From a virus (Duplodnaviria > Caudoviricetes): DNA of 64,000 nucleotides. The notes beneath the pieces were generated by a model. That model was not told the DNA's origin. It did not search any database and saw only the letters and a list, made by a program, of their open reading frames with translations. The position numbers were made by a program, and so were the translations under genes. This document shows positions 27,451-47,036 of this stretch, in pieces; positions within the stretch are counted from its first letter, which is position 1; every line of letters begins with the position of its first letter. The DNA lies in IMG/VR virus record IMGVR_UViG_3300044557_000185, positions 44,379 through 108,378 of that record. One strand, given 5' to 3'.

Positions 27451-28497
27451 TCAAAACATTCCAGCATATGGAGACTTGAACTTAGACGGCTTAGCATATG
27501 CATCTATGTCAGACACAGCTGAATTTAGCGAATCAGACGGGCTAGACACTACATTATTCAGATATCTGTCTGCTCTAGCATTAGTCTGGTCTGAAAGAAG
27601 TCTGTACGCTAGCACCATCAAGCAGTCGACAAGATCTGAGTGCCCAAGATTACCTATTCTTGGCTTGACTACTTTCCCATTCACTATCTGCAAAGCTTCC
27701 AGTTCTGCTTGAAGCATGCACCTAGCTGTCTCCCAAGTGTTCATGTCATCGAAGTACGAATGAACCCAATGCTCATTTATGCACATCTTCAATATCTCGT
27801 ACATCTTAGTGTTCTTGCTTCCAGTGAATGTCTCTTCAAACACTTTGCAAGCTATGTTGTTATCATGGCAGTATGCCATCAGATCCTGTATCGGCATTAC
27901 TGAATTGAACTGATCGAATGATATCGTCTTAAGTCTGAACAGAGCTATTAGCTGCTTTATGTCATTCAGTATGGGTCTGTATTCTATCTGACCTGATTCG
28001 AACTGACTTGACTTGTAGACTGAATACCAGTCGACTATCATGTGCTTGTAGCTTATGCCGAACTCATCTGGCTCATTCAGTTCAGAATGGCATATCATGA
28101 CAGCAAAGTCGTCGTTGACTTTAGCTGGATCGCAATGCATATGGTACTCTTTGGAGTATTCACCCTGATTTCGCTTCTCAAGATGCATGTGAATGCCATT
28201 GATGTCGAAGTCATCGAATATCTTAGCTACTGCTTGAGGAGACAGATAGACGTTCAAGCCCTCGACGAACTGAGCTCTGTTCTCAACTCTAGCATTTATC
28301 GGATCAGCTGCTTCTTCAGCTGCCATAGCTTGCTCTTCAATTGAGCCATTTGCATCAGGCTTGAACTGTATTGGCCTGGAGAATGCAAGACGCTTGTAAG
28401 CTTTAGCTTTATGAAAAGCATCTAGCTCAATATTGCTCATATCTGAAGTATCAATTGCTTCAGAATCCAACACTTTTACGAAATGTCCCATTTTCAC
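27451..28497 (-). CDS. terL: terminase large subunit, C-terminal nuclease half
   Basis: HCDPAKVNDDFA, ISFDQFNS, HSDLVDCL RNase-H-type acidic residues. Confidence 0.85.
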   Translation of the reverse strand: MKMGHFVKVLDSEAIDTSDMSNIELDAFHKAKAYKRLAFSRPIQFKPDANGSIEEQAMAAEEAADPINARVENRAQFVEGLNVYLSPQAVAKIFDDFDINGIHMHLEKRNQGEYSKEYHMHCDPAKVNDDFAVMICHSELNEPDEFGISYKHMIVDWYSVYKSSQFESGQIEYRPILNDIKQLIALFRLKTISFDQFNSVMPIQDLMAYCHDNNIACKVFEETFTGSKNTKMYEILKMCINEHWVHSYFDDMNTWETARCMLQAELEALQIVNGKVVKPRIGNLGHSDLVDCLMVLAYRLLSDQTNARADRYLNNVVSSPSDSLNSAVSDIDAYAKPSKFKSPYAGMF

Positions 28498-28566
28498 CAG
28501 ATTAACTGTAGTAATTGAAGCTTGTATATATAATTATATACTAACAGTTTACTGCAATTAATCTGA
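28498..28566. repeat. divergent palindrome, copy 5, abutting the TerL C-half start
   Basis: CAGATTAACTGTAGTAA...TATATAATTATATA...TTACTGCAATTAATCTG. Confidence 0.7.
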
Positions 28567-28607
28567 GTGATTCATGAGAACATGCTAAATTGCATTTTTG
28601 CATAATG

Positions 28608-29081
28608 CTACTTAAGAGGCACATCGAATTGCTTGTAACGACTCATTCCTCCAGGTAAGCCATAGGAGTCAATGCATTGCGTAGCATATTTGACAGTCAC
28701 ATTGCCACGATTCCCATGAAGAAGAATCGGTCGCTTATCTCTGCTCAAGAACCAGATAGAGCCATCTTCCTTCCTGAACAGAGTAAGCACATCTTTTCTA
28801 GATAGCTCTTCATTTGGCAAGCGTTCGCTGTCTTCTTTTCTGGCAGCATACATGAATTCTGCATATGCTCCTGCTTTGGGAGCATGGTTCTGATCATACA
28901 GAGAGTCTATCGATATGCTGTCGCAGATCTTGATTCCATCAGCATCAGCAACTGCTTCATAGACAGCATAGCCTTCTACACCTTTACATAGTCTAAAGTA
29001 GGTGTCAAGATCATGAAGACGAACATGCACTTCATCTCCTGCTTTGACATTGTCTTTCATGTTGATTCTTCTAGCATTCAT
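28608..29081 (-). CDS. hypothetical protein
   Basis: 157-aa ORF. Confidence 0.65.
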   Translation of the reverse strand: MNARRINMKDNVKAGDEVHVRLHDLDTYFRLCKGVEGYAVYEAVADADGIKICDSISIDSLYDQNHAPKAGAYAEFMYAARKEDSERLPNEELSRKDVLTLFRKEDGSIWFLSRDKRPILLHGNRGNVTVKYATQCIDSYGLPGGMSRYKQFDVPLK

Positions 29082-29127
29082 CTCATTCTAGCTTTCCGTT
29101 TTTTCTATTGCTAGATTGCTATCGCAA

Positions 29128-29559
29128 TCAGATTCCTGTTGATCCGAAGCCAGATGCATCTCTTCCGTCTTCAGACTTGCCCAAGCTTTCTGCTTCTTCC
29201 CAATCTGATGAATCTATCGACATGACAAGAAGCTGAGCAATTCTGTCGCCAGTCTTGATTTCGAAAGCTTTGTCGCTGTGATTGACAAGATTGACTAGAA
29301 TCTCTCCTCTGTATCCAGAATCTACAATTCCTGGAGAGTTCATTACTGTAATTCCATCATGTATAGCTAGACCAGATCGTGGAACTACCATTGCTACTTT
29401 GTTCTGATCTAGTCTAATAGCAATGCCTGTATGTACGAGCTTGTACTGTCCAGGTTCAATTGTCGTGTCTTCAGAAGAATGCAGATCAGAACCAGCATCA
29501 AATGCATGCTTTCTAGTCTGTTCTTGAGCATTCTCTGCAATCTTATGCCATGCAGTCAT
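29128..29559 (-). CDS. dut: trimeric dUTPase
   Basis: DAGSDL, PRSGLA, GIVDSGYRGEI, GDRIAQL, RDASGFGSTG. Confidence 0.95.
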   Translation of the reverse strand: MTAWHKIAENAQEQTRKHAFDAGSDLHSSEDTTIEPGQYKLVHTGIAIRLDQNKVAMVVPRSGLAIHDGITVMNSPGIVDSGYRGEILVNLVNHSDKAFEIKTGDRIAQLLVMSIDSSDWEEAESLGKSEDGRDASGFGSTGI

Positions 29560-29735
29560 TCTATTCCAAGCCTCTTTCTCAATCGTACGTTGTCTTTAGC
29601 TAGCTCCAGTATAGTGTCATGCACATCGTCTAGAAAGTCATCTACTTGGTCTGCATCATACCAGTCCCTTTTGAATTTAGTCTTGAAGTCGAATACTTTA
29701 GCTTCTACATCTTGTGGCTTGACAAGTGCAACCAT
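29556..29735 (-). CDS. DivIVA-domain mini-protein (59 aa)
   Basis: MVALVKPQDVEAKVF...WYDADQVDDFLDDV plus coiled coil; not in the ORF track. Confidence 0.75.
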   Translation of the reverse strand: MVALVKPQDVEAKVFDFKTKFKRDWYDADQVDDFLDDVHDTILELAKDNVRLRKRLGIE

Positions 29736-29795
29736 CTTTAACCCTTTCGTTTATGTTTCTATCTTGCTTTCAATCAGCATGTTCATGTCATATTA

Positions 29796-29922
29796 ATATC
29801 CTATCTTTATACTCTGTATATTCTCAGAATGACGACGTTTATACGTGTGAACCTCTAGTATTCAGTATATATAATTATATATGCTTACAATTCTAAGTCA
29901 TTAGAGAACAACGTCGTAAATC
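29796..29922 (-). repeat. dispersed intergenic palindrome, copy 6 (inverted)
   Basis: GACGACGTTTATAC...TATATAATTATATA...AGAGAACAACGTCGT. Confidence 0.9.
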
Positions 29923-30080
29923 TACTCATCTAGAACGTTTTTGCAATATGACTTGTCAAAGTCTTCAAAGATACGAGTAGCTTCTTCATAGCTAATTCCG
30001 AACTCTCTGAACAAGTAGTCTATGCTGAAGCCTGATTGTATGTATCTATAGAATGGAATATCGTCGCAGCTAGTCATATG

Positions 30081-30482
30081 TCAATCTTTATCTAGTACGT
30101 AGACGCATACGTTCAATCTTGGATTGACGCCAGCATATCTATATCGTTCCGAACCATCAGACGTATATTGAATCTGATCTAATGACTTGCTATAGATTGT
30201 ATCGAGTTCAAGAGAATTGACAAGAGACTTACACGGAATATACTTCATGAAAAGTACGAATATCAAACTATGTGCTACACAGTCGACTTTCACCTGTATG
30301 TCGTCTTCTGTCACATTGCATTCATTGTGACGAAGTCGCCATACGAAGTCTTCTTTGTATGAATCGATGATTTCATCTTTTATTTGCAAGTCGACTGCAA
30401 GAGTCAATTTGTAGCAGTACGTATCTTTAGACAATCCATTTGAATCTACTTTGATTTTGGCTATTGTGTACGGATCTATCAT
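30081..30482 (-). CDS. hypothetical protein
   Basis: 133-aa ORF, coupled to the upstream gene. Confidence 0.6.
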   Translation of the reverse strand: MIDPYTIAKIKVDSNGLSKDTYCYKLTLAVDLQIKDEIIDSYKEDFVWRLRHNECNVTEDDIQVKVDCVAHSLIFVLFMKYIPCKSLVNSLELDTIYSKSLDQIQYTSDGSERYRYAGVNPRLNVCVYVLDKD

Positions 30483-30826
30483 TTGGCGTCCTTAAGACTT
30501 TCTTGATACTTTCCAGGCCATGTATGAACAAATGCATTCTCAATCTGAGCATAACGATTGATTACAATTGGAGTAGATGGGAACGGAATGTAGCTGTATA
30601 TCTTCTTTCCATTTTCATTCTTTACTGTTATCTTAAGCAGCACACGATCTGGAATAGTAGACGTCTCATATTGGAAAGCAAATTCTGTTCCTACTACATC
30701 TAGCATAGCAGTTCTAGCTTCTTCATATGAATCTGCTTCTACAAGAACTACTTCATCTGCACTGATATTGCCTAGCACCGGATGAGGCTCATAGTCGTAC
30801 TTGCTTCCGAATGTGAAATAGTACAT
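30479..30826 (-). CDS. hypothetical early protein
   Basis: AAGGAG RBS, promoter upstream; YYFTFG start. Confidence 0.7.
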   Translation of the reverse strand: MYYFTFGSKYDYEPHPVLGNISADEVVLVEADSYEEARTAMLDVVGTEFAFQYETSTIPDRVLLKITVKNENGKKIYSYIPFPSTPIVINRYAQIENAFVHTWPGKYQESLKDAK

Positions 30827-30872
30827 CGTGTTTAACTCCTTTCTTTTTTGATTGTTTTTAATCTATAGTTAT

Positions 30873-30901
30873 ATTATATAACACTTTTGAATAGATGTAA
30901 A
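30873..30901 (-). promoter_or_regulatory. conserved phage promoter
   Basis: TTTACA-N17-TATAAT-ATAACTAT. Confidence 0.8.
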
Positions 30902-30922
30902 ATCGACATGAAAAGAATATAG

Positions 30923-30950
30923 AAAAAGCCCAGCTTATCGGGCTGGGCTT
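30923..30950 (-). terminator. rho-independent terminator
   Basis: AAGCCCAGC-CCGATAA-GCTGGGCTTTTT. Confidence 0.85.
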
Positions 30951-31026
30951 AGACTAGACTTCATGACATAGTCATGTCAAGTGTAAATGCTATATTCGAA
31001 CATCAAAAAGATGTCAATTCAGCAGA

Positions 31027-32178
31027 TTATTTCTTTGCAGATTCAGTTATCGGAACATTCTCACCATGGGCTTCAATTTCATCTTCAACAGTCTCTTCTG
31101 CTTCACCGTTTCTGTATTCGACTAGATCTGCAAGCATATCTGCTAGCTCATTGTCAGGATCAAGCGCTAATTGATCAGACAGTGCTGAAATAGCTGCATC
31201 TAGATTAGATACGTCATGCGCTTTCTTTACAGAAGCTTTATGCTTCGAGGCATTGACATTGGAAGCTACCCATGCATCAGCAGCACGTTTTGCTTCAGAA
31301 AATGTATAGTAATCAGCATCAGCATCAAAGTACACGGTTTCACCAGTTTCAGCGTCTACGATTTCAAAATTGACATTGTAGTCGTCACCGTTTGCTTCGA
31401 AAAGTCTAACTGTAGCTGCGTAGCCATTGCCATAGTCTTTATACTCTGAACCATTAAGCTGAACTATAGACGCGTAGCCATCGCTATAGTCGTCATACTC
31501 TGAGCCATATGGTTCGACGCCTGTATCAATCCAGCCTTCAGAAGCTTTCTTTGCAGATGCTTCAGTAGCGAATGGATCGTCTGCTTCCTTATCATCATCA
31601 AGATCTGCAGCGTTGTAGCAAGCATTCTCAGCTTCCTCGAACGAGTCGAATCCATAGAAGGTGTCATTAAGAAGACCATTGACTGACGATGTAGCATCAA
31701 AATGCTCAATGCCATCCTCATCTACATACGACTGAATCGTGAACTCGTCTTTTCCAGTGTCGTATGTCCATTCTTTGATCTTTCCATAGTCTGGGTCGTC
31801 ATATGACTCCAAAGACCAGTCGAAGTCGTCAGCAGCTGTCTTCTTAGCAGCCATAGTAATTCCTCCATTTTCAGCTGATTCGCTTGCAGCATCTTCAGCA
31901 GACATTTTCGTGTACCATCTAATTGCATTATCATACAAAGCTAGAAGATCGCCTCCATCTCCTACAGCAGTGAATGCATAATTGAATCCGTCTTCGCCAT
32001 CGTATTGCAGAACTACATTGTAGCTCTTAGCAGAAGACTTCAGACTAGAATAGAGATCTTGCACATCTGAAACATCCCAGATTCCCAAGTCGTCAGAAGC
32101 TATCTCAAACTTCATGGTATTGCTCAATGCATTCAGCCTTTCTCGGTAGAATAGATGCGATTCATATGGAAGAATCAT
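31027..32178 (-). CDS. acidic protein with basic KxA linkers, possible internal head protein
   Basis: Acidic domains separated by AKKTA/AKKAS/VKKAH. Confidence 0.55.
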   Translation of the reverse strand: MILPYESHLFYRERLNALSNTMKFEIASDDLGIWDVSDVQDLYSSLKSSAKSYNVVLQYDGEDGFNYAFTAVGDGGDLLALYDNAIRWYTKMSAEDAASESAENGGITMAAKKTAADDFDWSLESYDDPDYGKIKEWTYDTGKDEFTIQSYVDEDGIEHFDATSSVNGLLNDTFYGFDSFEEAENACYNAADLDDDKEADDPFATEASAKKASEGWIDTGVEPYGSEYDDYSDGYASIVQLNGSEYKDYGNGYAATVRLFEANGDDYNVNFEIVDAETGETVYFDADADYYTFSEAKRAADAWVASNVNASKHKASVKKAHDVSNLDAAISALSDQLALDPDNELADMLADLVEYRNGEAEETVEDEIEAHGENVPITESAKK

Positions 32179-32251
32179 GATGTGATGACAAGATCCATAT
32201 AGTTATATTATATCATCAACGCTATTCTATTCGCATCAATCTCGATCAATG

Positions 32252-33211
32252 CTAGTTCAGATTGACTTGCACTGCAGTAGAGTCCTGAGTGTCTCCATCT
32301 TGGATTTCTATGATTCCACGAGCTCCATAGAACATCAACGGTGCTTGACGATTATGAATGTCCATAAGCTGAGACCAAGTCACATCTGCATCTGTCGAAT
32401 GAATCAGATTCTTAGTGCAGTTGATAGCATCTGCGCCATTAGCTACCATTTCTGTAGAGTCATTCCATACAAGCTCATTGTCATTGATGAAGCCAAGCTT
32501 CGCATATTGCGACGTAGTCACATCAGCAAAGCAAGTGTCCATGATCTGCTGTTTTAGCTGCGATGAAGAGGGAGTTGCATCACTGTCACTAGAATCTGAC
32601 TGAGAATCATCTTGCTGGTCATTATCGCTAGAACTGCTATCTGAATCAGACGAAGAATCAGACGATGGTTCAGGCTTGAAGTAAGTATCATACGTAGCTT
32701 CTGTCATAGCTGCGAATTGATACTTGCCATATTCGTTCTTGAACAAGAAGAACCAATAGTCTCCATTCTGTTTTGCTTTAATGCCAGCAGTGGCTACAGT
32801 CTCATCACTGCCCTTGTCAGCGTCATGCTTGACTATCGAATTAAGATTGCCCTTGTCTACTCCAAGATTAGTCGCAATGCAGTCGAAGTACTTCGTATTG
32901 CTGTATGGAGACATTGATGAAGTTGATGCCATGTAGTCATCAGCACTGAAACCGTCATCTTTAAAAGAGGAGTTCATTTCATTGTCGCATCTACTGAAAG
33001 CAGCATTGAGACCTACTGCATTAGCCTTCTGAACGTATGAATTAATCGCTAAGCATGTTGCCGCTACAGCAACTGCTACGCCAACTCCAATTGCAATTTT
33101 CTTGATCGTGTCACGCTTCTTGCTGTCTGGATCAGGAGCTTGTGCAGATGGGTGCGATATGTGAGCGCTGTCATACTGCCAATTCGGGTTGTTCTGATTT
33201 TGAATGTTCAT
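32252..33211 (-). CDS. membrane-anchored exported protein
   Basis: TM segment IAIGVGVAVAVAATCLAI, Ser/Asp linker, paired Cys. Confidence 0.7.
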   Translation of the reverse strand: MNIQNQNNPNWQYDSAHISHPSAQAPDPDSKKRDTIKKIAIGVGVAVAVAATCLAINSYVQKANAVGLNAAFSRCDNEMNSSFKDDGFSADDYMASTSSMSPYSNTKYFDCIATNLGVDKGNLNSIVKHDADKGSDETVATAGIKAKQNGDYWFFLFKNEYGKYQFAAMTEATYDTYFKPEPSSDSSSDSDSSSSDNDQQDDSQSDSSDSDATPSSSQLKQQIMDTCFADVTTSQYAKLGFINDNELVWNDSTEMVANGADAINCTKNLIHSTDADVTWSQLMDIHNRQAPLMFYGARGIIEIQDGDTQDSTAVQVNLN

Positions 33212-33273
33212 GATTCAAGCCTTTCATTCCTTTCATGTCATCGATGTAAGCTATTTGTTTAGCTTATAGTTAT

Positions 33274-33302
33274 ATTATATACCATAAGGCAAGCAAAGTA
33301 AA
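33274..33302 (-). promoter_or_regulatory. conserved phage promoter
   Basis: TTTACT-N17-TATAAT-ATAACTAT. Confidence 0.8.
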
Positions 33303-33315
33303 ATCGACAGCTAAA

Positions 33316-33440
33316 GTTATGACGTTGTTCTCTAGTAACATAGAATATGAAGCATATATAATTATATAGACATGATACTGTAAGTTAGCAGAGATAAACC
33401 TCGTTAATCTGGTGACATGCCAGTGTCATATGTATGATTG
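33316..33440 (+). repeat. dispersed intergenic palindrome, copy 7
   Basis: ATGACGTTGTTCTCT...TATATAATTATATA...AGAGATAAACCTCGTTAATCTGGTGAC. Confidence 0.9.
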
Positions 33441-33445
33441 AAAAA

Positions 33446-33592
33446 TCAAATGCTTGTAGTATTGCTAGTTCGATATTGCGTTTCGATGACGAATGGTGAC
33501 TTGCAATATGGACAGACTTCTATGAATCGACCATAGTGTAGAGGCTGCCATTCAGGCTTTACGAATATGTGGCAATGGGTGCAGTATTGCAT
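33446..33592 (-). CDS. small zinc-ribbon protein (48 aa)
   Basis: MQYCTHC...VCPYCK; not in the ORF track. Confidence 0.55.
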   Translation of the reverse strand: MQYCTHCHIFVKPEWQPLHYGRFIEVCPYCKSPFVIETQYRTSNTTSI

Positions 33593-33594
33593 GT

Positions 33595-33894
33595 CTATTC
33601 CTTGCTATGCTTGATGATTCGTGACATTGGCGTTTTTCTGTCTGCTGCTTTGCCAATCAGAATGTCTATATGACATCCAAGTGCATTTGCATATGCAGCT
33701 AAAGCTTCAAGTTCATTATCTATTACTTTGTACAAGTCAAAGTCTGAATCGACATTCATAAGCATCTTGATCGTCTCGACGTTCTTACTATTCTCTATGC
33801 TCAAGTCATGCAGAGCTTTGATGATGTCAGGATGCTTGAATCTGGAATAGTCTGTGAAGGCTTCTGCTTGTCTGTCGTCACTCATCAGAATCAA
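33595..33894 (-). CDS. hypothetical protein, possible degenerate HTH
   Basis: LAAYANALGCHIDILIG resembles an XRE C-terminus. Confidence 0.5.
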   Translation of the reverse strand: MILMSDDRQAEAFTDYSRFKHPDIIKALHDLSIENSKNVETIKMLMNVDSDFDLYKVIDNELEALAAYANALGCHIDILIGKAADRKTPMSRIIKHSKE

Positions 33895-34504
33895 CCATTG
33901 TAGCTGTCATTCCATCGATCTTGTATTTGCTGATCTTGTGCTTTCTTTCAGAAGCTGAAGTATCGAATGCATAAGCTGGATGAGTCTGCTTCATAGTCTT
34001 GACTACAGCTCGTTCTGTCATGACAGCATTGTACATCTTGATGATTTCATCTTCATCTAATTCGATGAAAGTAGTCTCAAGACCATCGAACAGTCGATAC
34101 AATCTCCAATCGTTTTCAGTCTTGACTAGTTCAGTCCATTCACCTATTGCGTAGCTATGGACTTTGCTGTCATGCTTGAATGGATCGTATTCGTCTTCAT
34201 CAATTGGCATCAGGAAAATAGCAATATCGTGTCTGTCAAGCAGTTCAATGAAATTAGACCATGTATTACGGATGCCATAGTCGTCATCATAAATGCAATC
34301 GTCTTCGAATAGAAGCTGCCAAAACGTTATGAATGCGTTGGCATCATGAAACAGAATCGATACTTCTTTCTCGTCTGGCATGACTTCATCATTGAATTCG
34401 AATGTGCCATTGCTGCCAGACAGCAAGAACTTATGATGGATGTACTTCTCAGACAGAACTGTCTCCATGACTTTGCGATTCGATTCTTTTCTTTGCTCAT
34501 TCAT
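33878..34504 (-). CDS. hypothetical protein
   Basis: 208-aa ORF. Confidence 0.65.
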   Translation of the reverse strand: MNEQRKESNRKVMETVLSEKYIHHKFLLSGSNGTFEFNDEVMPDEKEVSILFHDANAFITFWQLLFEDDCIYDDDYGIRNTWSNFIELLDRHDIAIFLMPIDEDEYDPFKHDSKVHSYAIGEWTELVKTENDWRLYRLFDGLETTFIELDEDEIIKMYNAVMTERAVVKTMKQTHPAYAFDTSASERKHKISKYKIDGMTATMVDSDE

Positions 34505-34630
34505 ATTTCATATCCTAAATCTATATCCAGTATATCCTACGATTAACGACGTTTAATTGTGTGAACTTCTAAGCATAAGTATTATAAATTATATATACTT
34601 AAGCTTTCGTATCAATCTAGATCAATCTGA
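34505..34630 (-). repeat. dispersed intergenic palindrome, copy 8 (inverted, degenerate)
   Basis: AACGACGTTTAATTGTGTGAACTT...TTATAAATTATATA...TAGATCAATCT. Confidence 0.75.
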
Positions 34631-34651
34631 TACTTTCATTACTAACTACTT

Positions 34652-34843
34652 TCATGTAAGCGCCATTACTAAGACAACGATCAGATTGATTGCAGTCAGC
34701 AAAGACAATAGCATTAAAGCCATTGACAAATCCACTTTCAATTGCTCATGCTTGTCTTTTGCAGCTAGAATCAGAATAGTTACGGACAGAATGCTTGATA
34801 TGCATGTGAATACAGCTGACAGAATAAGCAGAAATTCAATCAT
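34652..34843 (-). CDS. small two-TM membrane protein
   Basis: Hydrophobic 63 aa; overlaps the GT stop. Confidence 0.55.
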   Translation of the reverse strand: MIEFLLILSAVFTCISSILSVTILILAAKDKHEQLKVDLSMALMLLSLLTAINLIVVLVMALT

Positions 34844-36231
34844 GGTCTCATCTCTTTGAATCGTCTTACAATCCTAAGTATCAAGAATGTCATTGACAAT
34901 GAAGACAGAATTGTCATAAAAGCTAGTGAGCGCCATCCCACAGTCATCACCATACTACCTACTGCTGGTGCATATCGCAATAGGAAGATAAGTCCTATCA
35001 TCGGTAGTGAGAATGACACAGTGAGCACCATCCAGCCGGAAACATTGACATGCTTGCTCGAAGACTCAGCTTTGTACTGCTTCTTCCATCCATCAGAACG
35101 AAGATTCAGCAAAAGCGATACTAAAGACTCTATCCAGACAGATAGCGTTCGTAGATAGTAGATCTCACCTGGAATGAAGACCAAAGCACGAAAGACTTCT
35201 CCAAAAGACCTGTCTGGTATTCTTACTGCAATCAATGTCGATTGAATGATAGCAAGAACGATTGGTGTAAGCCACCACAGCGACAAAGAAAGATTGCCAG
35301 TCAAAATGTCTGCTCCAGCAAGCGAGACAAACAGCACTCGAAGAATGACATTCCACCCAAGAACCAATTGGTCACGCCATCTTCTTCTATCCTGATATGG
35401 ATGGAATTCACGAGTGAGGTCGTCAAAATGACCATCCTGCCATTTTCGTCTTTGACTGTGCCATTGGTATGAGTGAAGCATCAAACCAGTCCAAGCTCTT
35501 GCTTGTAACGATACTCGTGCCTCCAGTCCCAAACGAGACCCGATTCTTGTAAGCTGTGCATCCTCAACCTTGCTTGATGCATCCCATGGAAGTCGATTGG
35601 GCATTGTCTTCGCTATCGAATCAAGAGCTTTCATGCTGAACAATGTAGCTTGACCACCAAGAATAGATGTATGCTGACCTCTGAGTTGTGCACGAACCTC
35701 AGTCATTGCGAATTCGACACGTTGACCAGAGACAAGAGAACGAGAAAAGTTTGAATTCGTATCTGGTTTGCGGAATGCATAGCGTGCACGAACTCCAAGT
35801 GCAAGAGGCCATTGCTTCATGTCATGCTCAAGATGCTCTACCATATGAGAGTCAGCCTCTACATCAGCGTCACATCCAAGAATCATCATAGTGTTTGGAA
35901 AGTCATGACGAATGCATGAATACCCTTCATTAAGCGCATTAGCTTTTCCTGGAACATGAAGTCTGATGACATGAATATTGGGAAAGCAACCGGCGTATGT
36001 CTGCGCCATCTTTGCTGAGACATCGCTGATTCCGCTTCCGTTTATGACAATCAGTATGTTGTTGATTCTACGTGTCTGTCGCAAAAGAGAATCAAGAGTA
36101 ACATCGAGCGATTCTTCTTTCTCATATGTCGGAATCAAAGCTGTAATCTCATTGTCTGTTTGCTGTTGCACGTCAATGAATCTGTGCAGACGACCTATCT
36201 GTCGTTCAATGAAATCAAGTGTCGCCCACAT
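34840..36231 (-). CDS. processive membrane GT2 glycosyltransferase (PgaC/HAS/cellulose-synthase-like)
   Basis: IPTYEKE, GKANALN, DAD, VED, QRRKW, C-terminal TM helices. Confidence 0.85.
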   Translation of the reverse strand: MWATLDFIERQIGRLHRFIDVQQQTDNEITALIPTYEKEESLDVTLDSLLRQTRRINNILIVINGSGISDVSAKMAQTYAGCFPNIHVIRLHVPGKANALNEGYSCIRHDFPNTMMILGCDADVEADSHMVEHLEHDMKQWPLALGVRARYAFRKPDTNSNFSRSLVSGQRVEFAMTEVRAQLRGQHTSILGGQATLFSMKALDSIAKTMPNRLPWDASSKVEDAQLTRIGSRLGLEARVSLQARAWTGLMLHSYQWHSQRRKWQDGHFDDLTREFHPYQDRRRWRDQLVLGWNVILRVLFVSLAGADILTGNLSLSLWWLTPIVLAIIQSTLIAVRIPDRSFGEVFRALVFIPGEIYYLRTLSVWIESLVSLLLNLRSDGWKKQYKAESSSKHVNVSGWMVLTVSFSLPMIGLIFLLRYAPAVGSMVMTVGWRSLAFMTILSSLSMTFLILRIVRRFKEMRP

Positions 36232-37827: not shown

Positions 37828-37901
37828 TTTTGCTTTCCGTACAGATCTAAGTATTTTTGCTTATAGTCATATCGCATAGCAACTTATTGCAAATGTAAGA
37901 T

Positions 37902-38183: not shown

Positions 38184-38195
38184 TTAAGTTCTTCT

Positions 38196-38330: not shown

Positions 38331-38345
38331 GCTAAATGCTGCATA

Positions 38346-38941: not shown

Positions 38942-39183
38942 TCTGACGTCTCGCTTTCAATGTCATTCTTATCGCTTTTGTTCTCATTGTTATCATTCTG
39001 AACATTCTCGTCTTCACAATCAGCTATGCAAGAATTCACTACACCTTCTATTCGCAGCATGCTGTCGTCTATGCATGCAAGATCGTCTGCATCAATCAAG
39101 TCTGCAATGTATGAATGCAGCTGTCGCTTGAAGTTGTCTACTTGCTTCTTGATGTTTAGCAGTCCTTCATAGTCTTGAGTCAT
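38938..39183 (-). CDS. hypothetical protein
   Basis: Coupled early-gene run. Confidence 0.6.
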   Translation of the reverse strand: MTQDYEGLLNIKKQVDNFKRQLHSYIADLIDADDLACIDDSMLRIEGVVNSCIADCEDENVQNDNNENKSDKNDIESETSE

Positions 39184-39198
39184 GTCATGCTCTTTCTT

Positions 39199-39567
39199 CT
39201 AGAAGAACCATGGATTTTCTGTATTGCCACGAGTAATGAAGCGGATATGTGGCTCTTGCAATCCGTACTTGCCTTTGCAAAGCTGAGAGACATACCTTCG
39301 AATAGTTCTTTGATGACATTCGCCATCTTTGCTTTTGTATGAGTGAGATTCTCGTATGTACTTCTCACCATTGAGCGGGTCTGAATACGTCTTCTTGACA
39401 GAAACTTTACCATAAGCAATCTTTATGATGTTCATAGACCAGTCGCAGTAGTAGTTGTTGTCGCCATTGCATTTCACCCATTGACGATTGTCATAGTAGA
39501 TGCAGTCGTCTTCATTAGCTTCGTTGCTTTGAGTCATAGCATTCATCAGTCTTCGTTTCCTTTCCAA
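39199..39567 (-). CDS. hypothetical protein
   Basis: Early-gene run; start uncertain. Confidence 0.55.
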   Translation of the reverse strand: MERKRRLMNAMTQSNEANEDDCIYYDNRQWVKCNGDNNYYCDWSMNIIKIAYGKVSVKKTYSDPLNGEKYIRESHSYKSKDGECHQRTIRRYVSQLCKGKYGLQEPHIRFITRGNTENPWFF

Positions 39568-39768
39568 GCAGCTAAGAACAAGAAAACGCCTAACAATGCG
39601 AAAGCATTGACTTCACCTTTAGAATCAGATAGTGATGGGATAGCATTGACTGCAAGAACAAGCATAGATGCTACAAAAGCAAGAATGATTAGCTTGATTC
39701 TAGTCTTGTTGAGTTTCATGATGTATTCTCCTGATTCACTTTCTTGTTTGTTTTTGATTTATAGTTAT

Positions 39769-39797
39769 ATTATATAACACAATGACAAGAAAGTAAA
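39769..39797 (-). promoter_or_regulatory. conserved phage promoter
   Basis: TTTACT-N17-TATAAT-ATAACTAT. Confidence 0.8.
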
Positions 39798-39818
39798 ATC
39801 AAGATAGCATTATTTGTG

Positions 39819-40055
39819 CTAGATTCTTCCTAATTCCACACGATTAGATATGCATTCTAACATCATGTCATTCCAATGCTTTTCAGCTTCTGCTTTAGTC
39901 AAGTAGAAGCAGGTCTTGAAGCCTGATGGATGAGAGCATCTCAGCTGATGCTCATTATGCATCTTGTCGCCTTCAGTCACTTCTTCTGTGACGAAGATTG
40001 GGTGAGCTTTGCAGAATTGACATTCGATTGCATTGCGATCTTCTACGCTAGTCAT
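39819..40055 (-). CDS. Lar-like (restriction alleviation) zinc-binding protein
   Basis: CQFC...C...AEKHWN pattern. Confidence 0.5.
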   Translation of the reverse strand: MTSVEDRNAIECQFCKAHPIFVTEEVTEGDKMHNEHQLRCSHPSGFKTCFYLTKAEAEKHWNDMMLECISNRVELGRI

Positions 40056-40236
40056 CTAAATCATTCAATTCTTTGACACTGATCAGAACAGGATTGTAGA
40101 TGAACTTCGAAGCTTTATTGTATGCTTCTTGAAGTCTTTCTGCTTTGACAGTCACTTTAGTCTTGACATCGTTTTCGAATGTCCAGCTTTTCATCTTATG
40201 CAAGTCTAGTCTCCTTTTTGCTAATTCGTGACAGAT

Positions 40237-40476
40237 TCAGAATTGCTGACTCTTTCGCATATTTCTGTTCTTGATGAACAAGCTTGAAGCCCTTGAATAG
40301 CTGTCTTCTAAGACGTCTTTCGTATCTTTCGGAGCTGCCTTGTAGCTTTCGCAGTTCTTGTGCTTGTAGCCTTTGACAAAGCCATTCTCAAAGACTTTCA
40401 GCATAGCTAACTTAGGTCCGATATGACCGCATTCTGTGCATTTTGCAGATGTCAAAGCAGACATTGGTCTAGTCAT
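40237..40476 (-). CDS. hypothetical zinc-binding protein
   Basis: CTECG...HKNC. Confidence 0.55.
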   Translation of the reverse strand: MTRPMSALTSAKCTECGHIGPKLAMLKVFENGFVKGYKHKNCESYKAAPKDTKDVLEDSYSRASSLFIKNRNMRKSQQF

Positions 40477-40638
40477 CTTCTTTCAATAGTATCATTTACA
40501 TTATGCTATCTCTATGAAAAAATGCATTTCAATATGATAGTAGCAGATCATTCTGGCTAAGTGCAATACTAGCCAATATAATAATATTAATCCGTTGTTT
40601 CTCTATTTCATGCAAGTAATCATGAGACATTCGCGGAG

Positions 40639-41085
40639 CTACAACTGACTTCCCAATGCTGCATATCCAGCAATATCAAGCCAGCTGTCTCTTTTGTAGT
40701 CGCCATTATTGCATCTAGCAATCTTCAAAGCTATCATGCACAATGCTACATCTTTGCTTGAGACGTCTTGATGCAGAATGACAGACCACAGTCTAGCAAT
40801 GTCATTGAAGGAGTCTTCAGCTTCTCCATAGTCTTCTTTCCTGTCGACAGCGACAGTATCGATAGCGTCTGACAGCAATTGCTTTGCAGAATCTGTATCT
40901 TTGTCAGTAGTGTCAGCAGTGTCAGAGCTAACAGAATCTTCATCATGTTGATTCAAGCACTTAATGATGACAGGCTTAGCTTTGTCATACAGATATGAAG
41001 GCGAATATTCATGAGCAGGATCGAGTATGTCTGCTTGCTCTAAAGCCATGAATATCGAATAAGCAAGCTTCTCTTCATTTTTCAT
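40639..41085 (-). CDS. DUF6378-type domain protein
   Basis: DRKEDYG..EDSF..IARLWS...DVALCMIALKIAR...DSWLDIAGYAAL. Confidence 0.8.
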   Translation of the reverse strand: MKNEEKLAYSIFMALEQADILDPAHEYSPSYLYDKAKPVIIKCLNQHDEDSVSSDTADTTDKDTDSAKQLLSDAIDTVAVDRKEDYGEAEDSFNDIARLWSVILHQDVSSKDVALCMIALKIARCNNGDYKRDSWLDIAGYAALGSQL

Positions 41086-41526
41086 AGTCGATGTCTCTTT
41101 CTTTTTTGTAGATGTGAGCAGTTCGTTTGCAGTATGCTTTAGCTATATAAGTAAGCTGATCAGCTGCCTACGTCATCTATCATGCTATGAAGCTCACGAT
41201 ATCCTCTCTTAGTTTTTGGCTGTCTCATTCTCTGTATCAGCTTGTAGGTTACTGGATCGTAAATGTCTACCTTGACTGTCAAGCGTTCAGTCTCTTCTAG
41301 CTCCTCTAGTATCTTCTCTTCTCGTTTCTTTTGCCGGTATTTGCGCTGGTATTCGCGCTGGTATTCGGCCTCTTTTCTATAGTCTTTCAAAATTCCCGCC
41401 CTTTGTCGTTCGCAGTTTCGATGACTGCATTGACGACAGCTACAGGCTGCTTGAGCAGATGAGATGTCTCTTCTGGCGAGTAACCAGCATCATGCCATTT
41501 GAGTATCATGTCTATTGTCAGCTGCT

Positions 41527-41877
41527 TCATGATTTGTGCTCACGCATCTCTACTATTGCTTTGATTGCAGCATTCAGAATGTCTAATGTCGGAATTTCGA
41601 ACATCACTTCTTCGCCTGGCGAAGCGAAAAAGTCAGCAATAGCATCTGCCCCAGCATTAGCTTCAGCATCAGTGAGCGTCAATGCATCATGACGTATGCG
41701 CTTGTAATGCTCTGCAAGTGATTCAATGATGTTGGACGAATGCTGGTCATGGAGTTCCTTTACCTGTTCGCGATAGCAATCTGGTTCTTTGTTTTTAGTG
41801 AGGACGAATGGATCTCCATCAATGAAGAACAATGTATCTTCATGTTCCAGCATTTCATTGGTTGTAAGTTCACTCAT
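41527..41877 (-). CDS. hypothetical protein
   Basis: 116-aa ORF. Confidence 0.6.
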   Translation of the reverse strand: MSELTTNEMLEHEDTLFFIDGDPFVLTKNKEPDCYREQVKELHDQHSSNIIESLAEHYKRIRHDALTLTDAEANAGADAIADFFASPGEEVMFEIPTLDILNAAIKAIVEMREHKS

Positions 41878-42091
41878 AATTCACGCTCGCTATTGTTGTG
41901 TAGCCAAAATGCAATGAGAATATTCTTCATGTCTACTTTTTCGATTCATCCAGCTAATCAGAACTATTGCGGCTAGGATAGCCACCATAACGACAACATC
42001 TTGCCAATTCATAGAATGCCTTTCTCTATACATGTCAGCGATACGTCTTCAGATTCTGCTATGTCTTTTGTTGTCAGCTGCATATTCACTA

Positions 42092-42580
42092 TTATTCGAT
42101 TTCGTATGGATTTGGAGATATGTCAATGTTGCCTAGCAGCCTGTCGTATTCACCAGCAGAATGACCTTCACGCCATGCCTTGCTAGCTATATCACGATCA
42201 TGATCAACAAGTCTTGGCGCTTTAACAAAATCGCTCATAAATGAATCGAGAAGACTCCGTGACTTGTCCAACTCATCCTGTGTCAATGGTCCACGTGTAA
42301 TTGAATATCTACTTGCAATGTCTTGTGCAGTCTCATCACGAATACGCTCGTCATGCTCGGCAAGGGATTCAATGGTATAAGCAATATCAGATGGAAGCCA
42401 CTCGAAGAGGATGCCCTCCCAGTTATACATCCATGTGCTTCCGACCATCATCCAATGGAATTCCTTATCCAAGTCATCTGTACAACGTACAACTACAGTC
42501 GGCAGAACGGTTTCGCCTGCAATAAGATAGAGTCCCGGCTCTTTCGGTTCCGGCATGTTCTGGGTCATCAGCTCACTCAT
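42092..42580 (-). CDS. hypothetical protein
   Basis: 162-aa ORF, GGAG RBS. Confidence 0.65.
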   Translation of the reverse strand: MSELMTQNMPEPKEPGLYLIAGETVLPTVVVRCTDDLDKEFHWMMVGSTWMYNWEGILFEWLPSDIAYTIESLAEHDERIRDETAQDIASRYSITRGPLTQDELDKSRSLLDSFMSDFVKAPRLVDHDRDIASKAWREGHSAGEYDRLLGNIDISPNPYEIE

Positions 42581-42610
42581 GATTCACGCTCCCGGCTCTC
42601 AGCGAGGGCT

Positions 42611-42991
42611 TTAATGGCGATGCCCATTGCAAAACTCCAATACTTCGGCTGCCTGTTTAGCTAGTTTTTTTGTTTCTGCAATCACCATATCGAGTGTCCA
42701 ATGAACACCATGTATAAATATCTCTCCGGTTCTCGGATTGATAAGCTCATCGTCAGCATGGTTTGTGTCGAAACCGATCCAATTCTCTGCGTCTGGAGGA
42801 TAGGTTATGCCTCCATGCACATCGATAGACTCGTTGTCTTCAAGGTCTGATGACAGCCATGGGTGATCTTCTGGTAGTTTGACGTATCCGTTAATACTTT
42901 TCGTCGGCCCCTCGTATACCGTCCAGTCGATGCCCTGTTCTGTACCAGATGCGAGCGGCTTACGTTTCCCAAAACTACTTATTCGATTCAT
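42611..42991 (-). CDS. conserved phage hypothetical protein
   Basis: NGYV.LP.DHPW, VHGGITY, WIGFDTNH. Confidence 0.75.
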   Translation of the reverse strand: MNRISSFGKRKPLASGTEQGIDWTVYEGPTKSINGYVKLPEDHPWLSSDLEDNESIDVHGGITYPPDAENWIGFDTNHADDELINPRTGEIFIHGVHWTLDMVIAETKKLAKQAAEVLEFCNGHRH

Positions 42992-43260
42992 TTTATCGTC
43001 TCCTTGATACCCAATGCCTCGGCAATGTCAGACTTGACATCTTTGACCATCCATCCTATTTCTGTGTACTCATAGTCGTAAAGACTGCTGTTAGTCGTAT
43101 CCACAGCATCCAGTGCGATGAGATTGCTTATTCGTAGCTGCTCAGCGATGGCGATAAGAGCGATAGTCTTCGCATTCTCACGTTCAAAGTTGCTTGCATC
43201 ACTACTTTGAACATTGAATGACGCGGTAAGGTGCCTCTTTGCCTCTTCGATGTAGTTCAT
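42988..43260 (-). CDS. hypothetical protein
   Basis: ALIAIAEQLRISNLI motif. Confidence 0.65.
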   Translation of the reverse strand: MNYIEEAKRHLTASFNVQSSDASNFERENAKTIALIAIAEQLRISNLIALDAVDTTNSSLYDYEYTEIGWMVKDVKSDIAEALGIKETIK

Positions 43261-43925
43261 GATTCCTCTTTCAGGTCAACGTTCTCGATTCGAGCACGCT
43301 CAGCGAGAATCGACTCATACGCCTCCATGACACATAACTGGGCGCTCAGCAGGTCGAACGAACATGTAGGCTCGAAATCAAGCTGTCCTATCGTACAGTC
43401 GCGCAACATCGACCGCAGTTTTGATGTGCGGTCTTTCAACTCAAAATATTCGGTTACCATACGGTCTTTGTAATCACTCATGGTCGGGCTCCCAGTTGAT
43501 GCGCTCTTCGGGCGAAGCGCATACGCGAACTCAAAATCTGAAAGCCACATTTCGGAATCGCCAAGCTCGGAGGCGGTAACCTTCAGTTTGAAAGTGTCTG
43601 AAGCGCTTTCATTTCTAACTACCTTGTACCGGTTGCCGCTCTTTGCGACCTCGATATCACCCGGCTTCACTTTTTTGATATCAGTGATACGCTCCATGCC
43701 GTCGACGGTCTGAGGAGCTTCGCGCTCGAAATGATCGAATTTTCCTCTGTCGTGCCATCTGATATCGTTGCAGCCCTTCGCAATGCTATAGCGAAAGTAA
43801 CTATACAGATGATCGATCCCGTTAACCACGCCGATGAACTCCGGTTCTTCGCCCACGATCTCGTAGTATTTGTCTCCGATTTGACCGGCCATGTAATCGG
43901 TGATGATCATGTTGCTCATAGTCAT
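43257..43925 (-). CDS. hypothetical protein with C-terminal crAss001_48-like domain
   Basis: MSDYKDRMVTEYFEL...LLSAQLCVMEAYESILAERA. Confidence 0.65.
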   Translation of the reverse strand: MTMSNMIITDYMAGQIGDKYYEIVGEEPEFIGVVNGIDHLYSYFRYSIAKGCNDIRWHDRGKFDHFEREAPQTVDGMERITDIKKVKPGDIEVAKSGNRYKVVRNESASDTFKLKVTASELGDSEMWLSDFEFAYALRPKSASTGSPTMSDYKDRMVTEYFELKDRTSKLRSMLRDCTIGQLDFEPTCSFDLLSAQLCVMEAYESILAERARIENVDLKEES

Positions 43926-43959
43926 TCCTTTCGATAGATTTGTTTTTGTTTATAGTTAT

Positions 43960-43988
43960 ATTATATAACACTATTAAAGGAAAGTAAA
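43960..43988 (-). promoter_or_regulatory. conserved phage promoter
   Basis: TTTACT-N17-TATAAT-ATAACTAT. Confidence 0.8.
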
Positions 43989-44008
43989 ATTGAGATTAAG
44001 CAAAGCTA

Positions 44009-44329
44009 TCATACTTTTACATTGTCATTGTATTGCTTTTCAGATATCTTTATGAATGAATATCCAGACATAAGCAAGTCAAGAATAGACTTGTATTGCA
44101 TTCCGCCTACTCCATACTTGTCATTGTAATATAGCAATGCTGGAACAGGCATGATGACTCGTGAAACATCTGAATAGTATGCTATCTTGCCATAATAGCC
44201 ATTGCCATCAATATACGTATTGCGAGTAACATAGACGAAGTCATCAATAGCAGGCTTTGACGTAATGTTTGCATCGCTTTTCACATATTCAAAAGCGTAT
44301 AAGATAGAGTATTCTTGATCGTTTGCCAT
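44009..44329 (-). CDS. hypothetical protein
   Basis: 106-aa ORF. Confidence 0.6.
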   Translation of the reverse strand: MANDQEYSILYAFEYVKSDANITSKPAIDDFVYVTRNTYIDGNGYYGKIAYYSDVSRVIMPVPALLYYNDKYGVGGMQYKSILDLLMSGYSFIKISEKQYNDNVKV

Positions 44330-44343
44330 GATATCGTATCTTT

Positions 44344-44595
44344 CTAGTATTTGAAGCCTTCAATAGAAGCATATCTCTTGAAACTGTCTATAGCGTCTTC
44401 TCTTGTAGAATAGCCAACTCTTTTCTTGCCTATTCGTATGATTGTACCAACGAATACGAAAACAAAGTACCTGTATGCATAAACGATTTCGTCTTTGTCA
44501 AAATCAATGCTAATAGGAACTTTATCTTTCTTTATGTATCCATAAAGATTATTGTATTCTATTGATTCGAAACTTTCGTGTTTATCTGTAATCAA
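44344..44595 (-). CDS. hypothetical protein
   Basis: 83-aa ORF. Confidence 0.5.
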   Translation of the reverse strand: MITDKHESFESIEYNNLYGYIKKDKVPISIDFDKDEIVYAYRYFVFVFVGTIIRIGKKRVGYSTREDAIDSFKRYASIEGFKY

Positions 44596-44597
44596 AG

Positions 44598-44888
44598 CTA
44601 TTTCCTACTTTGCTTTCTGTATAGCACGTCATTAGCTTCATCTGCATACCCAATTGCGAACATCACTACTAGACAATGATGCTCTACCCAAGTCTTGCAG
44701 AACTTGATCTTGAATGGCTGACCATTGAAATGACTGCTGATGTTAGTGTAGTCATGTTGAACAGATGCTTGAATAAGCGGCTTGACTTTGCTGAAGTCTT
44801 CTTTGATGTCTGAAGATGTGCTTGCATCGAAGTAGATTCTCTTTGCTATGTCGCTTCGCAGCCTTTTTCGTCCAGAACTGATCTTCAA
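44598..44888 (-). CDS. hypothetical protein
   Basis: 96-aa ORF. Confidence 0.55.
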   Translation of the reverse strand: MKISSGRKRLRSDIAKRIYFDASTSSDIKEDFSKVKPLIQASVQHDYTNISSHFNGQPFKIKFCKTWVEHHCLVVMFAIGYADEANDVLYRKQSRK

Positions 44889-45361
44889 ATCTTATTCTCT
44901 TTCTTCTTGATGTCATATTTCTTAGACAAAGCTTCTAGCACTTTTGCAGCATCATCTGGACTGATGCCAATGCTGATTATGTCTCGAATGATTTCAAGAG
45001 CGTCTTCTTGCTCTTTAGACAGATACGATTTCGAAGCAAGTCTCTTAGCTTTCCTGTCGTCTTCTTTGACATCGTCAGACCATTCTTCTTCAGGTAGATC
45101 GAAGCTAAGATTTGCATTGATATGCACATTGTTAGACGTATCAGCATATACTGCTTTCCAATAGCTCTTGTCTACAAATACGCATGAATACACATCAAGC
45201 CCAAGATTGACTAGCTCTTGATTTATGTCATTAAGCGCTTTGTCATCTTTTTTGTCTTTAAAATACACTCTAAACGAAATATTCGGATTAGTGTCAGTTT
45301 CTGATATGTAATTGAGCATACTCGTAATTGCAAGCAATGCTTTCTTGTATTTCATTGTCAT
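44885..45361 (-). CDS. hypothetical protein
   Basis: AAGGA RBS; promoter upstream. Confidence 0.65.
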   Translation of the reverse strand: MTMKYKKALLAITSMLNYISETDTNPNISFRVYFKDKKDDKALNDINQELVNLGLDVYSCVFVDKSYWKAVYADTSNNVHINANLSFDLPEEEWSDDVKEDDRKAKRLASKSYLSKEQEDALEIIRDIISIGISPDDAAKVLEALSKKYDIKKKENKI

Positions 45362-45392
45362 TCCTTTGTCTTGTTTTTTATTTTGTAATTAT

Positions 45393-45421
45393 ATTATATA
45401 ACACTTTTTAAAGAAAGTAAA
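45393..45421 (-). promoter_or_regulatory. conserved phage promoter immediately after the TerL N-half stop
   Basis: TTTACT-N17-TATAAT. Confidence 0.8.
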
Positions 45422-45428
45422 ATCTATG

Positions 45429-47036
45429 TCATTCTACATAGACATAGTCTCCTTCAACAGCATTAGTATCGGCGACTATTTCAGTCTTATGGCCATTGTC
45501 ATCTATGACAAGCTTCTTTGCTTTGAAGCCAGAATAGTATGTCGGAACATATGCTTGACTGTCGAAGTCTTCATAAAGATTCCAAGACTCTAACTGAGCT
45601 ACGAATATAGTGGGATCTGTTATGATAGCTTTCTTCGTATGCTCAATGTCTTTGTCTAGAGCATCTTTCTCTTTCCTTGAGAGGCCGTATTTCTCAGTAT
45701 ACTCCTTGACATGCTCTCTACCTTGCAAGTACTTGTCATACACTACTCCATTTCTAGTCCATGGAGAAGATGGGAAAAGCATCAGCTTGTATTTGCCGAA
45801 CTGCTGCAAAGCTGGCTGCATTGCTTTCACACCTCTGTCGCCAGATCTTGATGACTGCCCAGAGTTAGCGAAGAATATCTCGTCATAAGCAAGCGAAACA
45901 CAGTTGTGAGATCTAATGTTGTTAGCAAGATATGTATGCGAAGAAGTAGTCATGTCTATCAGATCTTGCTCTCCTACATGTTCGACTTCCAGCACAGTCT
46001 TAGTGCTGTCAGCTGTACGAACTATGTCGCCTTTAGACAAAGCTCCTGCTTCTTTCCAAGACCAGTCGTTCATCTGAACTTTATGGTCTATAGAGCAGAC
46101 TAATGGCATATTGACATTCTTAGAGACATGCAGTCTTACGCATTCCTTCTTTGTCTTCCACATGTTCAGAACTACAGCTTCTGTCAATGAATACGGTTCA
46201 TGCTCATGAAAAGCAAGTATCCTGCTTCCAGGATGAATAGTGCGAAGCTGAACCCAATGTCTTTGATAGTCAAGCACATACGAATCTGGAGATACGCAAG
46301 CTCTACCACGTATAGAATCTGAATCTGATGACACAGGCCTTGCTACAAATGATGAGATTGGCTTCTCAAGCGGCATTCCCTGACTTACTAGATCGATAGA
46401 TTGCATTCTGTCATCGAACGTCTGGAATCTTATCTCGAATGGAGTAGCTCTTTCAATGTATTGCTTGAGCCATTTGCAATGCATTACTGAGTTATAGTGA
46501 GCTGCAAACGTAGTCTCTTTAGCTTGGCCTTGCGTCTTAGCCATTACGAACGAATATGTGGAGTCGTCTTTGTCTTCATCTTCGCCAGCATCGTCTACAG
46601 TAACAGATGGTATTCCATCCCACATCAGGGTAGCATCTTGAAGGCATAGCTGAGCACCAGACATCATAGTCTTGGATGCTCGTCTTCCAAGAATAGGAAT
46701 GATCGTATTGAACCACAAATAGCCATTCTTCTTCAAGATAGCTACTCTTTCATATATGTCCTCATTGACACCTATCGTATACTGATCGTTTGAGAAAGAA
46801 GCTCTCCATGAGTCTAACGTCTTCTTCTCGTAATCAGACAGGTCATCTAATTGCAGATTCCATAGCTTAAGCATCAGTCTCTGTCTTGGATACAGCTTCA
46901 TATTGCAGAACTTGTCTGATTCGAAGAACTCCATAGGGTCGTCATTCCATGGAGAAGTGCTTCTCTTGAATGAGTTAGCTATTATAGAATCTGGTGTGAC
47001 AGCATTCAGTAAAGAATCAAGCATCTTGCTTTTCAT
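45429..47036 (-). CDS. terL: terminase large subunit, N-terminal ATPase half, intein-containing
   Basis: LYPRQ adenine-binding motif, GRRASKT Walker A, YDE Walker B, FPSSP coupling motif. Confidence 0.9.
   Translation of the reverse strand: MKSKMLDSLLNAVTPDSIIANSFKRSTSPWNDDPMEFFESDKFCNMKLYPRQRLMLKLWNLQLDDLSDYEKKTLDSWRASFSNDQYTIGVNEDIYERVAILKKNGYLWFNTIIPILGRRASKTMMSGAQLCLQDATLMWDGIPSVTVDDAGEDEDKDDSTYSFVMAKTQGQAKETTFAAHYNSVMHCKWLKQYIERATPFEIRFQTFDDRMQSIDLVSQGMPLEKPISSFVARPVSSDSDSIRGRACVSPDSYVLDYQRHWVQLRTIHPGSRILAFHEHEPYSLTEAVVLNMWKTKKECVRLHVSKNVNMPLVCSIDHKVQMNDWSWKEAGALSKGDIVRTADSTKTVLEVEHVGEQDLIDMTTSSHTYLANNIRSHNCVSLAYDEIFFANSGQSSRSGDRGVKAMQPALQQFGKYKLMLFPSSPWTRNGVVYDKYLQGREHVKEYTEKYGLSRKEKDALDKDIEHTKKAIITDPTIFVAQLESWNLYEDFDSQAYVPTYYSGFKAKKLVIDDNGHKTEIVADTNAVEGDYVYVE
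45903..46298 (-). other. cis mini-intein (132 aa, no endonuclease) in TerL
   Basis: RGRA|CVSPDSYV...CSIDHKV...HTYLANNIRSHN|C. Confidence 0.9.

Follow-up and report, generated by a model that had tools for sequence, protein, structure and literature searches.

The gene for the large terminase subunit (TerL) is a hallmark by which tailed phages are detected, classified and dated, and it is assumed to encode a single protein. In cyanobacteria, an essential enzyme, DnaE, comes from two distant genes on one replicon, and a canonical split intein ligates the halves. In herpesviruses, the terminase ATPase/nuclease gene of pUL15 is interrupted by other genes, and mRNA splicing restores one chain. Among phages, a two-gene large terminase has been annotated in Arthrobacter cluster AY (e.g., genes 2 and 3 of BillyTP; PMC11920828), and Dassa et al. 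(2009, PMC2677866) described a terminase gene in pieces in their account of fractured genes and of terminase inteins that are split atypically. Here we analyzed a terL that is split into two distant genes in a 64,000-nucleotide stretch (the window) of a Caudoviricetes virus, which consists of bases 44379-108378 of the complete 108,378-bp IMG/VR virus record IMGVR_UViG_3300044557_000185, a circular assembly as indicated by its 127-bp end repeat.

As in cluster AY, the ATPase and nuclease parts lie on two genes and presumably form two chains. The cluster AY genes are consecutive with a 17-nt overlap and sit beside terS and the portal gene, and their 198-aa nuclease gene places the cut at the domain border; in the terminase studied here and its relatives, 17-70 kb separate the genes and the cut falls ~40 residues inside the ATPase fold, such that neither the consecutive order nor the border cut of the cluster AY type is found. 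Moreover, both ends here bear conserved extensions, referred to below as the tail (of the N-half) and the head (of the C-half), and the lineage is Bxz1-like. The nearest cultured homologues, the TerLs of Bxz1-type (cluster C) mycobacteriophages and Eggerthella phage LE2-3, carry the same motifs but consist of one polypeptide of 661-737 aa (1007 aa with an intein) and have a short loop, without tail or head, at the break site; the ScottMcG TerL also has an intein in the ATPase domain. The arrangement of the Dassa type, with an N-intein, an endonuclease gene and a C-intein, was seen at the Walker B site of two relatives (G001 and G004), whereas the break studied here lacks intein chemistry, its extensions are far too short and its pieces are not adjacent. 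In contrast to DnaE, ligation is not expected for this terminase. A two-gene TerL is thus already known (PMC11920828), and what is new is the Bxz1-like lineage, the intradomain cut, the conservation of both extensions, and the fact that the gene also carries true inteins at a different site. The two genes and their parts are as follows.

45429-47036, minus strand: terL N-half gene, a 535-aa precursor (403 aa once the intein is removed) with the ATPase Rossmann core
45903-46298, minus strand: canonical 132-aa mini-intein, residues 247-378 of the N-half, just before Walker B
45432-45548, minus strand: N-half tail, residues 497-535, a 39-aa beta-rich extension
27451-28497, minus strand: terL C-half gene, 348 aa from GTG or 346 aa from ATG at 28491
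28396-28497, minus strand: C-half head, residues 1-34, an N-terminal beta-strand followed by P-x-D and a variable linker
28264-28395, minus strand: last ~40-45 ATPase-fold residues, which comprise the C-terminal lid helices with the RVENRAQF motif and belong to the C-half according to structure alignment
27568-28263, minus strand: RNase-H-like terminase nuclease domain with D123, D195, D288 and D291 invariant in the C-half alignment (A2)

A preliminary description of this DNA had placed the two genes ~17 kb apart, and its open reading frame (ORF) coordinates, strand and quoted end and start peptides were all correct; we measured the gap at 16,931 bp and found the split to be inherited. The N-half has GRRASKT as its Walker A motif, DE as Walker B and SSP as the C-motif, with G117, R118, R119, K122, D385, E386 and P425 near-invariant in a 61-sequence alignment (A5), and it matched PHROG 2, "terminase large subunit," with an E value of 2.5e-8. 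The structure model of the 535-aa N-half protein of the studied phage (P0001; the 348-aa C-half protein is P0002 and the phage itself G000) had a predicted local distance difference test score (pLDDT) above 90 across the ATPase part, and its best fold matches, albeit weak, were the P74-26 and T4 TerL ATPase domains (4znk, E 8.9e-3). Using tblastn, we found both halves to be ~30% identical to the contiguous TerLs of Bxz1-type mycobacteriophages and LE2-3, in which a single gene contains the two matching stretches next to each other. A four-way alignment showed homology of the N-half up to "...ESWNLYEDFDSQAYVP" and its restart in the C-half at "KRLAFSRPIQFKPD", and homology to the contiguous TerLs thus stops exactly at the tail and at the head. 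Each half is single copy in the complete 108-kb genome, where neither another terL, complete or otherwise, nor a match to Pfam Terminase_6N, TerL_ATPase or Terminase_6C was found; a sequence search of the Protein Data Bank (PDB) with either half and a megablast search of a phage collection gave no match. The two domains do not share a polypeptide, the genes being 16.9 kb apart and the two-gene form being kept in the clade, and the 403 and 346 aa of the halves add up to nearly the length of contiguous relatives (737-745 aa).

To locate the cut in the fold, we used as AlphaFold reference P0022, a contiguous 745-aa protein that is sister to the split forms. Its model had a mean pLDDT of 85, with 513 of the 745 residues at 90 or above, and matched T4 gp17 (3cpe) with an E value of 9e-13, the nuclease domains of G20c, P74-26 and RB49 with Z of 15.6-18.2, and the nuclease domain of herpesvirus pUL15. 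Crystal structures of the ATPase alone (P74-26, Z 19.8 over 240 aligned residues) span model residues 26 to 480-487 and nuclease-only structures (G20c, Z 18.2) residues 481-701. The N-half homology stops at P0022 residue 361, and C-half residues 39-304 correspond to P0022 residues 441-704, of which the first part, P0002 residues 39-78, covers model residues 441-480. Judged by this model, the cut sits ~40 residues inside the ATPase fold, off the domain border, which the preliminary description had overlooked. Since the C-half bears the last ~40 residues of the ATPase fold, neither chain has a complete ATPase domain, and with the fold cut internally, the two chains would have to dock stably by fragment complementation to make an active motor.

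The split form is widespread beyond this genome. Three further assemblies, obtained from different samples, have both halves at 97-99% identity and 16-17 kb apart. Among 5.8 billion proteins searched, we identified 13 stand-alone C-halves (274-346 aa, 42-96% identity), and every C-half homologue not cut short begins at the same place; an exhaustive HMMER search with an intein-less N-half as the query retrieved ~10 stand-alone N-halves or fragments, all ending in the same tail. The protein search returned no close fused form in its "near" or "longer" length ranges, and tblastn against the phage collection gave contiguous TerLs only, at 32% identity or less, and no cultured phage there with this split. 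Both halves were present in every complete relative genome searched: the near-identical G005, with the halves ~16 kb apart; G002 (116 kb), with the N-half at 84.1-85.4 kb and the C-half near 15 kb; G004 (103 kb), with the N-half at 25.6-28.4 kb and the C-half at 73-74 kb; and G001 (137 kb, 59% GC), with the N-half at 68-70.8 kb and the C-half at 5.7-6.7 kb. In G001, G002 and G004, the halves are on the same strand and separated by 45-70 kb in whichever direction the circle is followed, and structural genes lie between them. The distant relatives carrying the split are 42-59% identical and range from 41 to 59% in GC. In quick maximum-likelihood searches for the N and C regions, both trees placed all split forms in one clade with SH-aLRT support of 100% and P0022 as its sister.

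The substitution patterns indicate purifying selection on both halves, including the tail and the head strand. Among close relatives, the N-half has 54-62 synonymous and 8-9 nonsynonymous changes, and its tail 2-3 synonymous changes and none that are nonsynonymous; head codons 1-20 have synonymous changes only, the nonsynonymous ones being in linker codons 21-36. The tail lacks a counterpart in most contiguous TerLs, and an alignment of 12 tails from proteins 41-98% identical gave the clade consensus PTY-x-G-[WF]-[ST]-P-K-x-L ... TNA-x-x-G-x-Y-V-x-V-D, with the stop next. For the head, the consensus is M-x-x-W-[KR]-V-V-x-x-x-P-x-D before its variable linker, the strand being HFVKVL in this phage and W-[KR]-V-V in relatives, and in G001, a GGAG ribosome-binding site and ATG lie exactly ahead of the head strand. 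Both motifs are kept over the GC range of 41-59%. Since both extensions border the cut and only split forms conserve them, they most likely serve as an intermolecular beta-sheet clasp. We also considered a SpyTag-style Lys-Asn isopeptide lock and rejected it, the candidate Lys residues being variable (R in G001-type heads, R-H in one tail). Another rejected candidate was the ~80-aa break-site insertion of P0022 as an unbroken tail and head: HMM and hhalign comparisons were at chance level, and AlphaFold leaves the insertion disordered. By eye, its segment "G-E-L-V-L-D-D-W-R-A-V-D-P-G-P" resembles the end of a tail and the start of a head.

We consider it likely that the terminase consists of two chains that are made from two unlinked genes and act by fragment complementation, with the tail and head probably as their clasp and no covalent joining. 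Chain 1 would be the ATPase core, which would first remove its mini-intein before Walker B, and would end in the beta-rich tail. Chain 2, expressed from a separate promoter cassette 16.9 kb downstream, would consist of the beta-strand head, the lid helices formed by the last ~40 ATPase residues, and the whole nuclease. We infer that the two chains dock stably into an active motor, the tail and head pairing as an intermolecular beta-sheet without a covalent link. The preliminary description had proposed a co-opted, nonsplicing clasp for a two-chain motor; its two genes and lack of splicing chemistry were borne out, while the clasp role is plausible.

Several observations weigh against this model. 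The evidence base consists of metagenome assemblies throughout. In the single-chain P0001 model, the tail is a low-confidence hairpin (residues 506-511 and 517-522) that remains undocked; this would fit a segment awaiting its partner but proves nothing. The same-genome pairs of tail and head (n = 4-5) are too few for covariation. Finally, P0025, a contiguous protein of 588 aa that lacks both extensions, is placed within the split clade, grouping with the split P0021 in the N tree, which implies that a one-chain enzyme does not need the tail or head. The trees suggest either one split and a re-fusion in the P0025 lineage or several splits. Given that the trees were quick ones, P0025 may be a re-fused split gene.

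Among the alternatives, the one that fares best, while still improbable, takes the two extensions to be what survives of an intein, split atypically, that has lost splicing and over half of its fold but kept the association of its fragments and once allowed the dispersal of the gene. The preliminary description had seen the N-terminal pattern of Hint domains in the joined ends. We compared the joined tail and head profile with an alignment of 13 intein N-terminal regions using hhalign and obtained a borderline similarity, with a probability of 1.6% and a score of 15.6. Column-shuffled templates scored 9.7 +/- 1.9, and 3 of 150 reached the observed score; the real profile thus tops the other 147, and the alignment has the register proposed in the preliminary description, the tail lying on intein block A and the G-D-x-V strand. 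The terL lineage is also rich in inteins (the mini-intein here, split inteins in G001 and G004 and a tandem in P0020), and terminase inteins whose atypical split leaves a very short N-part have been documented (PMC2677866). On the other side, neither tail nor head had a Pfam match at an E value of 1 or below, Hint included, and an HMM of the tail found every other tail (E 1e-11 to 1e-26) but none of the inteins, although many TerLs of the set carry one. The tail of ~39 aa and the head of 20-34 aa amount to 50-72 aa, under half of a Hint fold (~120 aa or more), and the residues flanking them align to intein-less TerLs. The tail alignment contains no conserved Cys or His, no conserved Cys or Ser at position 1 and no T-x-x-H block, and the candidate Ser/Thr is Lys-Ala in this phage; the heads lack a terminal Asn followed by Cys, Ser or Thr, ending instead in S, K, N, D, T or A, and the extein restarts with Arg-Pro. 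The intein insertion site g known from ScottMcG does not coincide with the break, either, as it lies at the C-motif, ~85 residues upstream (PMC5050341). The proposed Hint pattern is thus a weak lead toward a decayed intein, whereas the accompanying view that no splicing takes place at the break agrees with the lack of conserved splicing residues. If the intein origin were true, the pair would be a natural "dead split intein" acting as a heterodimerization clasp in an essential motor, and it would have let an essential motor gene be cut within a domain and scattered.

Slightly less probable again is that an ATPase-only translocase and a free-standing nuclease act separately, without a stable complex. 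Packaging ATPases without a nuclease exist, phi29 gp16 being an example, and the two genes studied here differ in promoter and genomic context. Yet neither chain holds a complete ATPase domain, the halves always co-occur, and the tail and head are conserved in split forms only.

That active protein trans-splicing ligates the chains into one TerL is very unlikely. Cyanobacterial DnaE shows that a split intein can join dispersed gene halves. Such joining is found elsewhere as well, e.g., at terminase loci (PMC2677866). At the break studied here, however, there is no conserved nucleophile, block B or C-terminal Asn with Cys, Ser or Thr at +1; the residue before the resumed extein varies among S, K, N, D, T and A, the extein begins with Arg, and a Hint fold would require longer pieces.

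The preliminary description had further offered DNA excision and RNA-level rejoining as alternatives, and a rejoining of the halves by either route, through excision or transcript trans-splicing, has still less in its favor. The halves are on the same strand, and a faint resemblance between the junction DNAs had been noticed, but in local alignments the junctions scored no better than shuffled controls in four lineages and contained no repeats. In relatives, the interval of 45-70 kb holds structural genes, and excision would remove tens of kilobases of essential genes; no integrase, invertase or other recombinase was seen among the large intervening ORFs, and an Rfam search of the window gave one tRNA and no intron family. 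The conserved stop and start positions, the ribosome-binding site in G001 and the protein-level selection on the tail and head also speak against it. Equally implausible is that the split stems from faulty assembly or marks a gene in decay: all data come from metagenome assemblies, but the misassembly that the preliminary description had allowed for is contradicted by four independent assemblies with the same layout and by distant relatives that share it, and the two-gene form has been kept over deep divergence and under strong purifying selection.

A terminase made of two unlinked chains would matter in several ways. With terL in two distant genes, the clade will be mis-scored by marker-based pipelines. 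A cut within the ATPase domain would represent natural fragment complementation in a packaging motor and could be used to probe the communication of the lid and nuclease with the ATPase core, and the tail and head could make a compact natural heterodimerization module. The layout allows separate control of the expression of the halves and, together with intein splicing, several possible packaging checkpoints.

While the break itself lacks intein features, the N-half contains a canonical mini-intein that the preliminary description had overlooked, with Cys as its first residue, an S-x-x-H block B, and a terminal HN followed by Cys, and the mature N chain should therefore be ~403 aa. The intein-less homologues P0017 and P0018 lack exactly this segment, and phmmer ties it to the inteins that other TerLs carry at this site, although its best match to Pfam Hint (E 0.041) falls short of the family cut-off. 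Among close relatives, it has 11 synonymous changes and 1 nonsynonymous change.

Some relatives have further inteins at this position. In G004 (L023 1639-4427) and G001 (L024 1722-4291), the N-half is broken in turn, at the Walker B site, by a true split intein with an N-part of ~95 aa and a C-part of ~35 aa that ends in HN followed by Cys, which means that their terL is in three pieces. Between the intein parts lies a free-standing endonuclease gene with C2H2 zinc fingers and a TnsA-like nuclease domain. In G001, the C-intein ORF ends in "...HN-C-F-D-stop" and the extein (L-A-D-E-A-F-F...) resumes in another frame (L024 3795-3830); this looks like the loss of one nucleotide in a T run and may be an assembly error or a real frameshift. 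P0020 (493 aa) contains a complete mini-intein followed immediately by a split-intein N-part at the same Walker B site and thus has tandem inteins. In the window, a 307-aa ORF (11359-12282, minus strand) is 27% identical to the zinc-finger/TnsA-like endonuclease of G004 (E 8e-20) and may be a free-standing homing endonuclease in this genome.

Almost all genes in the window are on the minus strand. The features around and between the two halves are as follows.

47033-47673, minus strand: two small genes, encoding 70 and 142 aa, immediately upstream of the N-half
45393-45421, minus strand: promoter-like site TTTACT-17-TATAAT, beginning 8 bp past the N-half stop and heading the small-gene block
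43257-43925, minus strand: crAss001_48-domain protein, between the halves
34840-36231, minus strand: GT2 glycosyltransferase, between the halves
29128-29559, minus strand: dUTPase, between the halves
28503-28555, no strand assigned: promoter-like cassette, AT-rich and palindromic, that lies upstream of the C-half and is related to the 27346-27401 element
27346-27401, no strand assigned: palindromic cassette including TGGACT-16-TATAAT, between the C-half stop and tnpB

The gap between the halves contains 36 ORFs of at least 50 aa, close to the ~40 early genes of the preliminary description, although "early" is unproven; many small orphan ORFs are included in the block (28608-45361, minus strand). 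The promoter reported 8 bp past the N-half stop is indeed there, and the same promoter-like element lies directly past the stop in G002 and G004. The stop is TGA (window 45429-45431) in all four lineages examined (also L015, L023 and L024). The 70- and 142-aa genes upstream of the N-half had no Pfam or PHROG match and are syntenic with it in G002 and G004 (blastp). Three to four genes upstream of the N-half, a 153-aa protein (47845-48306, minus strand) has weak helix-turn-helix matches to transposase/DNA-invertase PHROGs and is a candidate small terminase or regulator.

The C-half was said to be bracketed by palindromes, and it does form a single-gene unit between two related AT-rich palindromic cassettes. 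Across lineages, it lies in differing late-gene contexts; here it is upstream of tnpB and then the tail genes. The TnpB encoded directly downstream of it (431 aa, 25993-27288, minus strand) has OrfB_IS605 and Cas12f1-like TNB domains and its own palindromic promoter cassette.

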